Assembly (NCBI GenBank): GCA_041479945.1
Contig: JBGOYZ010000003.1
Span: 1-56,094 of the forward strand
Length of the DNA: 56,094 bases
Reading direction: 5' to 3'
From: Thermoproteota archaeon
Lineage (GTDB): Archaea > Thermoproteota > EX4484-205 > JAAOZO01
Shown: one piece after another, positions 29,232-34,540 of the stretch
Layout: the number at the start of each line of letters is the position of its first letter
How positions within the stretch are numbered: the first letter of the stretch is position 1
Made by a program: the position numbers and the translations under genes
Notes under the pieces: model-generated
Database searches by the model: none
What the model was told of the DNA's origin: nothing
The model's input: the letters and a program-made list of their open reading frames with translations, nothing else

Positions 29232-32200
29232 TCACGCCACCGGACAGAAGCTCCAGCCACAGTCCATGCAGACGCCACATCCCCCTTCCATGGATATCCT
29301 AGTGCTTCCACACGAGGGACACTTGTCGTGATTGCCACCTGACAGTGGGACACCGGTGTTTTCGTTGACGGTGGGTTGGCCCATTCTCGTGCCAACTGGC
29401 GTGACGTTTACGGGCTGAGCTGGTGCGGTAATTTCCGGCTCTATGCCAGCCTTCTTCATCAACTCGATAGTCCTGTTCTTGACCATCACGGCATATCCTC
29501 CTTTCTTCGAGGAAGGGGCTACCAAGACTTGCCCTGGCCTCGACCCATCGCGATAGACGGTCACCCCCTTGATTCCAAGCCTGTGTGCGAACAGGTAGGC
29601 CTTGAAGACGTCTGGGACTCCTACCCACGAGGGCATGTTTATCGTCTTGCTCACAGCAGCAGCGATCCACTTCGCGAACGCGGCTTGTGCCCTGAGGTGA
29701 TCCCACCAAGGTATGTCAAGTGCCGTTTGGAACACAGCTTTGAAGTCATCCGGCATGCCGTCGATTCCCTGAAGCGAACCGCCGTTGTCGCTGATGTCCT
29801 TGAGTAGCTTCTCGGAGTAGCTCTCAGCCAGCTTCAGCCTCTTGTCAAACTCTTCGTCTGTGTAGTAGAAGTTGCCGACGGTGACACGCTTTTCGTAGGC
29901 CAACGCATATGCCGGCTCTATGCCCGATGATGTATCTGCGATCATCGATATCGAGCCAGTTGGAGCGATTGTTGTGCACTCTGCGTTCCTGATGCCATCT
30001 TCTCCTATCTTCTTCACGAGGACTTCCCAGTCCATCTTCCATTCCTCCCTGTGATAGTAACCCTCGATCGGGAGTTCCCCGTTCCTATAGGCTGAGCTTG
30101 AGAAGAGAGGGAACGGACCCCTCCGCCCTGAAACCTCGGTTGACTCCCACATGGCCCAGTACGACAGGTACTCGGCTACCTTCTCCATGAACTCAAACCC
30201 AGCTTCGCTGTTGTAGGGAACATCCAAAGCAAAGAGGACATCCGCCAGGCCCATGACTCCAAGGCCGACCTTTCGTGTACGCTTGGTAGCTCTCTCGATT
30301 GCTGGGAACGGGAATCTGTTCACATCGATGACGTTGTCTAGGAACTTGAGTGCCACAAGAATGCTTTCTTTGAAGTGATCCCAATCAAAACTCTTCTTTC
30401 CTTCTTCGTTCTCTTTGATGAAGGCATACAGATTCAGAGACCCGAGATTACATGACTCGTAGGCGTACAAGGGTTCCTCCCCGCAGTTATGAACGACCAA
30501 CCCGTTTGCGACGAAGCTGTGGGTCTCGGGCTCCTTGAGGTCGAAGACGGTTTCGTACCCGACTCGTCTTATCTCCTTCACGCTGGTGACGTATTCCTGT
30601 CTGTTTGAATTCCTCCTCTTGTCATCTATCCACTGCCTGAGCTTGTTCTGCTTCTTCCGGATCAGGAACCCGATCTCCCGCGCAAATGCGTCCCTGCTTT
30701 GCCCATCGATTGACAACTCATGGTAGGCCATGCACTCATACTCCTTCCTGCCCCCGTGACCATCCGGCAGGAAACGGACTTGTTTGCCTCTTCTGTTGAA
30801 GTAGATCCTAGACACTATGCCGAAGTTGAGCAGAAGTAGCTGAACCTGTTCCAGGAGTTGTCTTGAGACGCTTGTCAGGCGCACAGAGCAGCTCTTGTTC
30901 TTGGTGATGTTGATGTGCCCATCAGCGGTGAACAGTCCCTGGAGAAAGCCCCTCTGCAATTCCTTGGAGCCGCGAAACACCAACTCAGGTGCCTGAAGCT
31001 TGTTCCCATCAGGAAACGCCGGCTCCAGCTCGCCATAGAGTCTCTTAGATGTGATGTAGAGGCAGTCCTGTCTTGGATTGTCATTGATCCTTACGGGGCT
31101 GCCCGTCAGTTTGGCCACAGCCTTGGCCATCATGGGAGCGATCTCCTTATCCTCGCCATAGAATCTCAGGTACACCCTTTGGCCGCTGATGTCACCATCC
31201 CCGACAGTCCAGCCGACCGTTCTGCCAGCTTCCAGTGTACCGAACTCACCAAAGCCTCCGACTCCAGACTGTAGATACAAGACATCGTTGTGCGTCAGTT
31301 CGCAGAGAGGTTTCCAGCCATCTTGCGTGCGGAACTTATGGTCTGATGTGGCCTTGATCCGGTATCCATGTCGGGTCTGCACCTCATAGACGAGCTTCGT
31401 ACCACTGCACACGACATCAGCAACATCCTTCAGTTCCGTTCCCGAAGCCTGATACGCTCTGCTCTTGTGTTTCATGCCGTAAGGATAAACCATGACTGGG
31501 GCCGGTCCGACTCTCGCATCAGTGACCGCTCTAATGGACATTTGATGGTCATACAGGTCCGCGATCCTGATCATCCCCCTGTCGGTTGACACCCTGCTGT
31601 TCCCCACGATGCAGGGGTTCGTGCTTGTTATGGGCCCGAGAACACCATTCATGACATTCCTCTTGTTCATGTTGTCGAAGAACACTACTCCAGGGTCGCC
31701 GTTCTTCCATGCCTGTTTTGCGATAGTCTCGAAGAGCCTCGCCGGATCGATTCTCTCTGCCACTTTTCCGTTCCTCGGATTGACTAACGGATAGGGCTCG
31801 TTCTTCGCAAGGGAATCCCAGAAGCCCTCTTTCACCATGACCGAGATGTTGAAGTTCTCGAACCTACCCGGCTCGGACTTGCATAGGATGAAGGACTCTA
31901 TGTCGGGATGATCTATGTCGAGTATTCCCATGTTCGCCCCTCTTCTGCGCCCACCCTGTCGCACGACATCCGTCACCGTGTCGATAATCCGCATGAAGGA
32001 AACGGGGCCACTTGCCACACCGGATGTGGTGAATACGATGTCACCGGTTGGCCTCAACCCAGAGTAGTTCAGACCGATTCCTCCGCCACTCTTGAAGATC
32101 ACAGCGGAGTCCGTGGCCGCTGTCATTATCGATTCTATGTCATCCTCAATGGACAACACAAAGCAGGCAGACAGCTGGCCCAGCAAGGTTCCCGCGTTGA

Positions 32201-32990
32201 ACAGGGTTGGAGAGTTGGGTAGAAACCTCCTCGTTGCCATCATAGAGTAGTATTCGCTGAACTCACGTGCATGGGAGTCGAACTCACCCCTGAGCACGCC
32301 GTCCCAGAACTCAGTCCAGCTCTTCTTCATCTTCCCTTCTTCGTTCAGCTCGTCGTACAGCTCCTTCATGCGTTCAAGGTGGTACTTGTTCCAGGTGAAC
32401 TCATACTCACCGCTGGGTCCCTTGAGCCCCACCTTGCCGTCCCAGTCGACGGCCTTCCACATCTCTGGTTCCCGGGCCTGCTGATCGCCGGCCTTCGAGA
32501 AGATCGTCACGTCATGCAGTATATCAGGGATCACGATCAGGGCGGCAATCCTCTTGAACATCAGCTTCGGTCCTTCGATGAAGTTACCTTCACTGTCCTT
32601 CTGAAGGTACCTGGCGGCCAGAAGTCTGAGTGAATTCACGGAGAAATCTTTGTCCACCTCGTCGAGGGGCTCTTTCTTCAGTGTCCCCTCCTTCTCTTCC
32701 CTTATCTTCTCCCTCTCCTTCCTGTAGATTATGTAGGACCTTGCTACCTCAAACAGATCCTGCTTGACGAGTTCCATCTCGACTATGTCTTGGATTTCCT
32801 CCACGGAGGGGACCTTCCCAGAGGAATGCAGCCCCTCTATCACCTTGAGCACACTCGAGAGAACAGACTTCAGCTTCCTCTCGTCGTACTGCCTCTCGTC
32901 CAGCATGGCCCTCCTTATGGCGCGCTCAATCCTAGAAGGGTCGAAACCTACGACTGTTCCGTCACGTTTGATAACCTTCCTTTCGCTCAT
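29232..32990 (-). CDS. nrdJ: Adenosylcobalamin-dependent ribonucleotide reductase (class II), intein-containing precursor
   Basis: 1252 aa. It has an N-terminal ATP-cone (VIKRDGTVVGFDPSRIERAIRRAM). The catalytic motif is split as STNP|...|CGEEPL. A C-terminal Cys-rich zinc finger is present (CPSCGS...CGVCMDCG). The extein total is 876 aa. Confidence 0.95.
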   Translation of the reverse strand: MSERKVIKRDGTVVGFDPSRIERAIRRAMLDERQYDERKLKSVLSSVLKVIEGLHSSGKVPSVEEIQDIVEMELVKQDLFEVARSYIIYRKEREKIREEKEGTLKKEPLDEVDKDFSVNSLRLLAARYLQKDSEGNFIEGPKLMFKRIAALIVIPDILHDVTIFSKAGDQQAREPEMWKAVDWDGKVGLKGPSGEYEFTWNKYHLERMKELYDELNEEGKMKKSWTEFWDGVLRGEFDSHAREFSEYYSMMATRRFLPNSPTLFNAGTLLGQLSACFVLSIEDDIESIMTAATDSAVIFKSGGGIGLNYSGLRPTGDIVFTTSGVASGPVSFMRIIDTVTDVVRQGGRRRGANMGILDIDHPDIESFILCKSEPGRFENFNISVMVKEGFWDSLAKNEPYPLVNPRNGKVAERIDPARLFETIAKQAWKNGDPGVVFFDNMNKRNVMNGVLGPITSTNPCIVGNSRVSTDRGMIRIADLYDHQMSIRAVTDARVGPAPVMVYPYGMKHKSRAYQASGTELKDVADVVCSGTKLVYEVQTRHGYRIKATSDHKFRTQDGWKPLCELTHNDVLYLQSGVGGFGEFGTLEAGRTVGWTVGDGDISGQRVYLRFYGEDKEIAPMMAKAVAKLTGSPVRINDNPRQDCLYITSKRLYGELEPAFPDGNKLQAPELVFRGSKELQRGFLQGLFTADGHINITKNKSCSVRLTSVSRQLLEQVQLLLLNFGIVSRIYFNRRGKQVRFLPDGHGGRKEYECMAYHELSIDGQSRDAFAREIGFLIRKKQNKLRQWIDDKRRNSNRQEYVTSVKEIRRVGYETVFDLKEPETHSFVANGLVVHNCGEEPLYAYESCNLGSLNLYAFIKENEEGKKSFDWDHFKESILVALKFLDNVIDVNRFPFPAIERATKRTRKVGLGVMGLADVLFALDVPYNSEAGFEFMEKVAEYLSYWAMWESTEVSGRRGPFPLFSSSAYRNGELPIEGYYHREEWKMDWEVLVKKIGEDGIRNAECTTIAPTGSISMIADTSSGIEPAYALAYEKRVTVGNFYYTDEEFDKRLKLAESYSEKLLKDISDNGGSLQGIDGMPDDFKAVFQTALDIPWWDHLRAQAAFAKWIAAAVSKTINMPSWVGVPDVFKAYLFAHRLGIKGVTVYRDGSRPGQVLVAPSSKKGGYAVMVKNRTIELMKKAGIEPEITAPAQPVNVTPVGTRMGQPTVNENTGVPLSGGNHDKCPSCGSTRISMEGGCGVCMDCGWSFCPVA
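30486..31613 (-). mobile_element. Intein with LAGLIDADG homing-endonuclease domain inside the NrdJ NPCGE active-site motif
   Basis: 376 codons (aa 460-835). It starts CIVGNSRV and ends GLVVHN, followed by Cys+1 (CGEEPL). The LAGLIDADG-type blocks are GWTVGDGDIS and LQGLFTADGHI. Removing it restores TNPCGE. Confidence 0.9.
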
Positions 32991-33337
32991 GCGATCAGGT
33001 GATGGCTTCCCTCAGGCCTTTCGTTCTTAACGGTTTCCATGTCACTGTAACCGAGCTTAAAACACGGAGGGGCGATCCTCCTTCAGAACATTAGAGGCCC
33101 GACGCCGAGTGTCGGCAGACGAAATGGGACAGAATCTCGCCTATCGAGCTCAGATGTCCGGAATTATGGAAGGGGCTCATGGACCCGTCAGACTACACAA
33201 ATGTAGTGTTGGAGGAGGTCGGCAGCTTCGATGCCGAGAAATGCCCATACTTTCAAGTCGGTCGCCGAGATCGTGACTGCACCACGACCCGCTATAGCAA
33301 CAAAGGATTAAAACGACATAGCCTTCGACCTAGGCAA

Positions 33338-33429
33338 GGGGTCGTCGTCTAGAGACGCAGTCGGACAACTTGGTCTAGGATACCAGCCTGGGGCGCTGGA
33401 GACCTCGGGTTCAAATCCCGACGACCCCA
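33338..33429 (+). tRNA. tRNA-Pro (anticodon GGG at 33390-33392) with a 16-nt non-canonical intron in the D-loop
   Basis: Acceptor GGGGUCG/CGACCCC plus A73. Anticodon arm is CCAGC-CUGGGGC-GCUGG and T arm is UCGGG-UUCAAAU-CCCGA. The 92-nt gene is 16 nt too long between positions 8 and 26. No CCA is encoded. See the finding for the BHB fold. Confidence 0.85.
33353..33368 (+). other. Predicted tRNA-Pro intron (between tRNA positions 15 and 16)
   Basis: The 4-bp helix 33347-33350:33363-33366 is flanked by 3-nt bulges AGA and AAC. An inner helix GAC/GUC is also present. Excision leaves a 76-nt cloverleaf. Confidence 0.65.
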
Positions 33430-33634
33430 TGTGATCATGGATCTTACATGCTCGCCCATCTCTCTCACTAATCTCCGCGCGCGGTTGTGATCTACATGGG
33501 AACGTCAAGCTTGAAGCTGCATTGGGGAGAGCTTCTACAACGGAGAACGCGGCAATCCGAGAAACGAGAAGTGTCGCCCCCTCAATAGCGTTAAAAGCAA
33601 CAAGCTCTTCGAGGCACGCTGATCTCCGCGGGCA

Positions 33635-34540
33635 ATGGAAGTGCGTGTTCAAGCCCATCGTGGCAAGCTCTTCTCGATACTGGAGGCCCTGTTGGTGACC
33701 TTCCTGTGGTCCTCGTCTTATGTCTTGATCAAGATCGCCCTAGTTGAAGTGACTCCCATGCTGTTCGCTGCCATCAGGTACTCAATGGCATCTATCATTC
33801 TGATCGCTGTGAATGTCGTGTCAACGCGAAACGAGAGTTGGAGATTGACCAAGAACGACATCCTCCTACTGGTCGCGGCCGGTTTCTTCGGGTACACTGT
33901 CGCGCAAGGTCTTCAGATAGTCGGGTTGTTGTATCTTCCAGCAACGATGGTCACTCTCGTTCTGAACTTCACCCCAGTCTTCGTCCTCCTGATGGAGGCG
34001 GTGCTACTCAGGGAGGTACCGACATCGGTCCAAGTCATAGGCGTGTTCACCGCGTTGTCGGGGGCATTGCTGTACTTCAGTGGTCAGATCGGGCCGGCTA
34101 ATCCGGCCGGGATAGCTCTCGTGCTAGTGTCGGGTATCGGTTGGGCAGCTTACTTGATAATACTCAGACGCATTCAGAGATCTGGCACCATCTCCTCAAT
34201 GAGACTCACTGGGATCACGATGACCGTCGGTACGCTGGGCATCGTGGCTCTGGTTCCCTTCTTCGAGCCGTTCCGTGTACCGAGCATCTCTGCGATGTTG
34301 ATTCTCGTGTGGCTCAGCGTCGTGAACACAGCGTTGGCTTTCTACCTGTGGAACCAAGTTCTTCGTTTCCTCAGGGCATATGAGCTGTCGATCCTGCAGA
34401 ACAGCATGCTCGTGCAAATAGCGATACTCTCCTTCATCTTTCTGGGAGAGTCCGTAACCTGGGCAATGATGGCTGGGATGATTCTCGTCCTTGTCGGAAT
34501 AGTGTTGGTCCAGGTGACATCCGTGAGAAAGCGACGATAG
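33635..34540 (+). CDS. DMT superfamily (EamA-like) transporter
   Basis: 301 aa, about 10 TM segments, with two EamA-like repeats (LWSSSYVLIKIAL...; GIGWAAYLIILRR...). Confidence 0.8.
   Translation: MEVRVQAHRGKLFSILEALLVTFLWSSSYVLIKIALVEVTPMLFAAIRYSMASIILIAVNVVSTRNESWRLTKNDILLLVAAGFFGYTVAQGLQIVGLLYLPATMVTLVLNFTPVFVLLMEAVLLREVPTSVQVIGVFTALSGALLYFSGQIGPANPAGIALVLVSGIGWAAYLIILRRIQRSGTISSMRLTGITMTVGTLGIVALVPFFEPFRVPSISAMLILVWLSVVNTALAFYLWNQVLRFLRAYELSILQNSMLVQIAILSFIFLGESVTWAMMAGMILVLVGIVLVQVTSVRKRR

Follow-up and report, generated by a model that had tools for sequence, protein, structure and literature searches.

The window, a 56,094-nucleotide stretch of DNA from a Thermoproteota archaeon, carries on its plus strand a 92-nt tRNA-Pro(GGG) gene (33338-33429) that, according to direct reading and a script, bears an intron. 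We conclude that the 16-nt intron, located at position 15/16 of the tRNA, is very probably removed through a relaxed HBh' motif by the splicing endonuclease EndA together with the ligase RtcB. The gene is orthologous to tRNA-Pro(GGG) genes across the phylum. In the draft assembly of the window genome (1.33 Mb, 111 contigs, 91% complete), neither ARAGORN nor a T-arm scan revealed another tRNA-Pro gene for any proline isoacceptor.

Gene anatomy and the intron motif

Exon 1 (33338-33352, plus strand, as are all features of this gene) comprises the 5' strand of the acceptor stem, U8 and C9, the 5' strand of the D stem (G10-U13), A14 and G15. Exon 2 (33369-33429) was delimited by reading and by ARAGORN and contains the remaining D loop, the 3' strand of the D stem, the anticodon arm, the variable loop, the T arm, the 3' strand of the acceptor stem and A73. 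Between them lie the 16 nt of the intron (33353-33368), which are missing from intronless orthologues. With G1 at 33338, the acceptor stem consists of seven perfect base pairs (GGGGUCG/CGACCCC). The anticodon arm reads CCAGC-CUGGGGC-GCUGG, the T arm UCGGG-UUCAAAU-CCCGA, and the variable loop has 5 nt with C48 as its last base. The anticodon GGG was located at 33390-33392 both by ARAGORN and by direct reading. Thus, the identity features of a tRNA-Pro are present, namely a cloverleaf, an anticodon of the NGG type, G37 and the discriminator A73. CCA is not encoded.

Standard tRNA finders do not report this gene. Both ARAGORN and Rfam report solely a 73-nt tRNA at this locus (33357-33429, plus strand), and the agreement of the two programs speaks for an intronless 73-nt tRNA-Pro as the real gene, even if its Rfam score of 30.2 bits is just above the threshold of 29 bits. 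We nevertheless give this reading next to no credence and regard the call as a decoy with a false gene boundary. Two of its seven acceptor pairs are mismatched (C-C and A-C), and its D stem forms two of four pairs. Intronless orthologues reach 61.1 and 56.9 bits in Rfam, about twice the score of the decoy. Furthermore, the decoy was not recovered in genes of the same genus or of genus g6, where the intron-bearing orthologues L002, L003 and L013 gave no Rfam match above threshold. The decoy leaves out 15 upstream nucleotides that do not vary between two genera and with which the intronless genes also begin. Finally, a putative TATA/BRE-like, A/T-rich promoter box, AAAGGATTAAAA, can be read at 33302-33313 on the plus strand, from -36 to -25 relative to G1, and a similar box (AAAGAATTAAAA or AAAGTTTTTAAAC) is found at about the same distance 5' of exon 1 in the same-genus and g6 orthologues. 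A promoter-like box 25 to 36 nt in front of G1 fits a transcription start near 33338 and not at 33357, where the decoy begins. The annotation is therefore corrected here. Since the finders give a wrong 73-nt gene at this locus and miss the orthologues entirely, the tRNA complements of the class will be undercounted.

The 92-nt gene contains a bulge-helix-type motif around the intron. Its central helix H pairs the exonic D-stem strand G10-U13 (33347-33350) with the intronic strand GGAC (G26-C29, 33363-33366), which mimics the 3' strand of the D stem, GGAU. The four base pairs are G-C, U-A, C-G and U-G. On its 5' side the helix is flanked by the bulge A-G|A (33351-33353; AG|A or AG|G in orthologues) and on its 3' side by the bulge A-A|C (33367-33369; AA|C, AG|C or AU|C in orthologues). 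An inner helix h' (33354-33362) of GAC (33354-33356) and GUC (33360-33362) closes the loop GCA; it was identified by reading and is backed by covariation. The local minimum free energy fold of 33345-33375 is exactly this HBh' structure. According to the script, the inner helix has 3 bp and the outer helix 0 bp, which places the motif outside the strict hBHBh' definition. Because the outer helix is missing, we assign the motif to the relaxed HBh' type, which is an established class (PMC5829648).

As a rule, archaeal EndA cleaves each bulge between residues 2 and 3 (PMC4307357). Applied to this locus, the rule predicts cuts after G15 (33352) and after 33368, so that exactly 33353-33368 would be removed. 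When these 16 nt were excised in silico, ARAGORN recognised the resulting 76-nt molecule as a clean cloverleaf tRNA-Pro(GGG) with 7/7 acceptor pairs, a D stem of 4 bp and the D arm GUCU-AGCUUGGUCUA-GGAU. The first-pass annotation, made from the sequence alone, had described a 92-nt gene with intact acceptor, anticodon and T arms and a 16-nt excess in the D region, and both reading and script bear this out. Likewise, the GUCU/GGAC helix of 4 bp, the AGA and AAC bulges, the GAC/GUC helix and the GCA triloop that it had proposed recur in reading, script and local fold. Its view of the motif as relaxed agrees with the outer helix of 0 bp and the HBh' class, and the mature tRNA of 76 nt with a GUCU...GGAU D arm that it had foreseen corresponds to the in-silico product, which folds as tRNA-Pro(GGG).

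The motif alone is weak evidence, since a loosely defined BHB-like motif appeared somewhere in the first 45 nt in 62% of shuffles, and it is the comparative data that carry the case. In a register-specific shuffle test, a 4-bp helix combined with an inner helix of at least 3 bp occurred in 0.05% of shuffled inserts. The stability of the local hairpin is not above that of shuffled sequence (z = +1.17), and when the entire 92-mer is folded, the structure of minimum free energy is another one, which does not contain the motif.

Orthologues, conservation and environmental DNA

When 60 relatives were searched, the gene matched over its full length in the own genus (g1) and in one further genus, g6. 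Elsewhere, the matches begin precisely at gene position 32, where exon 2 starts. In intronless orthologues the predicted joint is unbroken: GGGGTCGTCGTCTAG is followed directly by CTTGGTCTAGGA in L011, with small changes in L012, L015, L025 and others. In L011 and L012, both from the sister genus g2, and in many other members of the phylum, GTCTAG abuts CTTGG or TTTGG. L011 shares 73 of 76 positions with the predicted splice product, and the three differences all fall in exon 2, none of them at the joint. These data support the first-pass annotation in its placement of a 16-nt intron at 33353-33368 (position 15/16), since the predicted product exists as a continuous gene in intronless orthologues. 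The 3' junction is confirmed from unrelated data as well. Metagenome contigs that carry tRNA-Pro genes of other organisms align solely from 33369 on, and their unaligned upstream ends read ...GTAGTCTAG, ...GGGGCCGTAGTCTAG or ...GTCCAG, that is, exon 1 abutting exon 2.

Within the class, which is represented by a single order, an insert of 14-17 nt is present at the same site in 18 of 26 genomes. These are both genomes of the own genus g1 and 16 of the 17 genomes of g6; the lone g6 genome without the insert is a 0.6-Mb bin that is 70% complete. A further 375 genomes sampled from the phylum yielded no such insert; one extra pattern match among them proved to be a coincidence of the flanks. The 15 nt of exon 1 are invariant in all 18 intron-bearing genes and identical in the intronless L011, and the compared stretch of exon 2 is the same in the 18 genes save for one D-loop base in G010 (L020). 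While the flanking exons stay fixed, the inserts diverge in sequence and vary in length from 14 to 17 nt.

The motif is kept in the varying inserts. In an alignment with 13 distinct sequences, the HBh' pairs are retained in 96.5% of cells, compared with 19-49% in registers slid by 1-3 columns. As the aligned sequences are kin, shuffle statistics overstate the effect and the slid-register control is the fairer one. The central helix is paired in 98% of cells among the 13 distinct sequences, and the changes occur on the intron side only. There, the strand variants GGAC, GGGC, GGAU and AGGC all pair with GUCU, and GGGA, seen in one genome, leaves one mismatch. Compensatory changes were found in two of the three inner-helix pairs (GC/AU/UA and UA/CG/UG).

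The same DNA recurs in the environment. Metagenomes of sediment, wetland and peat, which stem from 18 studies (2019-2025), contain positions 32500-34500 of the window almost letter for letter, which indicates that the organism is widespread in such habitats. Three independent metagenome runs (2019, 2020 and 2024) provided contigs of 20-27 kb that span 33250-33520. Across this region they have no indel and two substitutions, neither of which lies in the gene, so that the 92-nt gene is unchanged.

These observations bear on two further readings of the locus. If the insert could not be spliced, the locus would be a decaying pseudogene, and a motif that is relaxed for want of an outer helix, in a local fold of no unusual stability, would be in line with such decay. 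However, both exons are strongly conserved in 18 genomes, whereas the insert changes in sequence but retains the pairing. Three independent environmental samples contain the identical gene, which is also the sole tRNA-Pro gene seen in the assembly, and the genome encodes matching enzymes (see below). We therefore consider a pseudogene very unlikely. It is extremely unlikely, in our judgment, that the mature tRNA keeps the 16 nt and thus has a larger D loop with an extra hairpin. Although the inner hairpin could exist as an extension of the D loop, the covarying central helix uses the 5' strand of the D stem and hence competes with the D stem itself, which makes sense only in a transient precursor. 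In addition, the bulge geometry and the junctions fit the endonuclease rule exactly, and the insert is missing in sister lineages. An intron that is spliced from a functional precursor remains our preferred explanation.

Splicing enzymes and the proposed pathway

Removal of a relaxed D-loop intron makes particular demands on the endonuclease. Cleavage of a D-loop intron depends on the Crenarchaea-specific loop and its K44 (PMC3241643), and a loop-bearing (alpha-beta)2 EndA splices a relaxed HBh' D-loop intron, which loop-less enzymes handle poorly (PMC5829648). A heterotetrameric or epsilon-type EndA had been named beforehand as the enzyme to look for, and indeed we found an alpha and beta pair of the heterotetramer type with the specificity loop. 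The window genome contains two tRNA_int_endo genes. EndA alpha (contig C1, 184 aa) has both Pfam domains, and the catalytic residues Tyr, His and Lys are all present. Among solved structures, the best relative of EndA alpha is the Aeropyrum pernix heterotetramer's catalytic subunit (3P1Z_B, E 5e-43), to which it aligns ungapped through the Crenarchaea-specific loop, with Lys40 opposite APE K44. EndA beta (contig C17, at most 218 aa) keeps the Tyr and the Lys and has Ala in place of the catalytic His, which marks it as a structural beta subunit. An RtcB ligase gene is present as well (564 bits). Judged by these predicted genes, the host should possess a heterotetramer-type EndA able to cut relaxed motifs, together with the ligase.

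The nearest relatives of EndA alpha, at 59-67% identity, come from MAGs labelled Brockarchaeota, Thaumarchaeota/Nitrososphaera and Thermoproteota, and also ex4484_205. The EndA beta gene (window genome G000, contig C17, 11012-11859, L032) lies directly downstream of two intron-bearing tRNA genes of 90-97 nt. The longest beta open frame overlaps the second of these tRNA genes, and the true start of beta is therefore further in.

We propose the following pathway for tRNA-Pro(GGG). Transcription of the apparently single-copy gene would yield a precursor of 92 nt or more, in which the D-stem 5' strand G10-U13 would pair with the intron strand GGAC as a substitute for its true D-stem partner. The resulting 4-bp central helix of the relaxed HBh' motif would be propped by the 3-bp inner hairpin. 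EndA, composed of the catalytic alpha subunit with its Crenarchaea-specific loop and the structural beta subunit, would cut after G15 (33352) and after A31 (33368). RtcB would then join G15 to C16, the true D stem GUCU/GGAU would form and CCA would be added. We infer both cleavage and ligation, as well as the exact bonds involved, from the sequence.

Intron turnover, archaeosine and known systems

The tRNA-Pro(GGG) gene occurs in several intron states within the class. It has no intron in g2 and the 15/16 intron only in g1 and part of g6. A subset of g6 (L013, L014, L016, L017, L020, L023, L024 and L026) combines the 15/16 intron with a second intron of 17-20 nt that lies inside the anticodon at 34/35 and has a full hBHBh' motif, with an inner helix of 3-4 bp and an outer helix of 2 bp. 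In g3, the nearest other genus, the gene (G003, L113:133-248) has no 15/16 intron and contains a 17-nt T-loop intron at 58/59 as well as a further insert of about 19-22 nt, with approximate borders, where the anticodon stem meets the variable loop. Several intron states of one tRNA in one class form a compact natural series for the study of intron gain and loss.

We saw no sign that the intron spreads within a genome, as the pattern of the intron design matches once per class genome, with one extra match in a tRNA-Gly gene of G006. This tRNA-Gly(GCC) gene of G006, a member of g4, lies on the minus strand of L115 at about 75-165, encodes CCA and has 19 nt of the same design inserted at 15/16, with the elements AG|A, a GUA/UAC hairpin, GGAU and AA|U. 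The tRNA-Gln gene in the window has motif-supported introns after position 10 and after about position 20, plus one in the anticodon loop, and none at 15/16. The intron search of ARAGORN also called a tRNA-Ser(GGA) with a 153-nt intron at 1835-2080 on the minus strand of the window; this call is probably spurious, since it has no Rfam match. The upstream neighbour of the tRNA-Pro gene (29232-32990, minus strand) encodes the 1252-aa large subunit of a class II-like ribonucleotide reductase, which is interrupted by an intein with a LAGLIDADG endonuclease domain.

The intron directly follows G15, which ArcTGT replaces with the precursor of archaeosine (PMC6313347). A full-length gene of the TGT family (about 260 bits) is present in all examined genomes of g2 (3/3), g3 (1/1), g4 (1/1) and g5 (2/2). 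No ArcTGT was detected in g1 (0/2) or g6 (0/17) with the Pfam model and a protein search using the ArcTGT of G002, nor in the window genome by tblastn (best E 1.7). Among phylum genomes that are at least 90% complete, 80 of 91 have ArcTGT; the remaining 11 are the window genome and ten genomes of g6, and all 78 sampled genomes of this completeness outside the class have the gene. The two genera in which no ArcTGT was detected, g1 and g6, are also the only two whose tRNA-Pro(GGG) was found to have the 15/16 intron. Of the five genomes checked for true QueC, G002 alone showed it, alongside its ArcTGT; G000, G001, G012 (g6) and the ArcTGT-positive G003 gave none.

In an RtcB tree, g1 falls within its family as the sister of g3 (support 100/97) and is separated from g6 (100/100), in agreement with the GTDB families. 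Since tree and taxonomy separate g1 and g6, two independent losses of ArcTGT, each coinciding with the 15/16 intron, are most parsimonious. The co-distribution of ArcTGT loss and intron amounts to at most two events. Mechanistically, ArcTGT has to flip out G15 and might therefore conflict with a splice site at the G15-C16 bond. That the 15/16 intron was fixed or kept only where the archaeosine modification of G15 had been lost, in the sense of a causal link, appears unlikely to us. A strict incompatibility of ArcTGT and a 15/16 intron was rejected, because G006, a bin with 7% contamination, has ArcTGT together with its tRNA-Gly(GCC) 15/16 intron. The co-distribution nonetheless offers a low-cost way into the question of whether tRNA modification enzymes limit the positions of introns.

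Non-canonical BHB-type introns, including those in the D arm and D loop, have been known since 2003 and were biochemically verified in Aeropyrum, Sulfolobus and Methanopyrus. The 15/16 intron of tRNA-Pro(GGG) is a well-supported example of this known phenomenon and not a new kind of element. Our literature search retrieved no paper linking the Brockarchaeota/EX4484-205 group to tRNA introns as a topic, and position 15/16 is not named in a review's list of intron positions, though that list ends in "etc.".

The Methanopyrus kandleri pre-tRNA-Glu(UUC) has a similar intron at 20b/21 (PMC5829648). It is likewise a short D-loop intron with a relaxed HBh' motif, and it is removed efficiently by the loop-bearing (alpha-beta)2 EndA of M. 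kandleri. In contrast, the intron described here sits at 15/16 in tRNA-Pro(GGG) and is not accompanied by a second intron at 37/38. Moreover, M. kandleri is a hyperthermophilic euryarchaeon, whereas the present host belongs to the Thermoproteota and comes from sediment, wetland and peat. The pre-tRNA-Thr(UGU) of A. pernix (PMC3241643) is comparable in its D-loop intron, in the heterotetrameric EndA and in the alpha loop, where the Lys of our alpha subunit stands opposite K44. The A. pernix intron is described as a canonical, strict BHB, while that of the window has no outer helix and its splicing is predicted. The D-arm introns of Sulfolobus tokodaii tRNA-Glu and the multi-intron tRNA genes of Thermoproteales (PMC4307357, PMC4090602, PMC4033280) share the non-canonical positions, the short introns and the cleavage between bulge residues 2 and 3. 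The lineage of the window differs from these and, by the relatives of its EndA, is probably the Brockarchaeota/EX4484-205 group. Heavily interrupted tRNA genes, combined with a loop-bearing EndA of the heterotetramer type, are thereby extended to an uncultured class of Thermoproteota.
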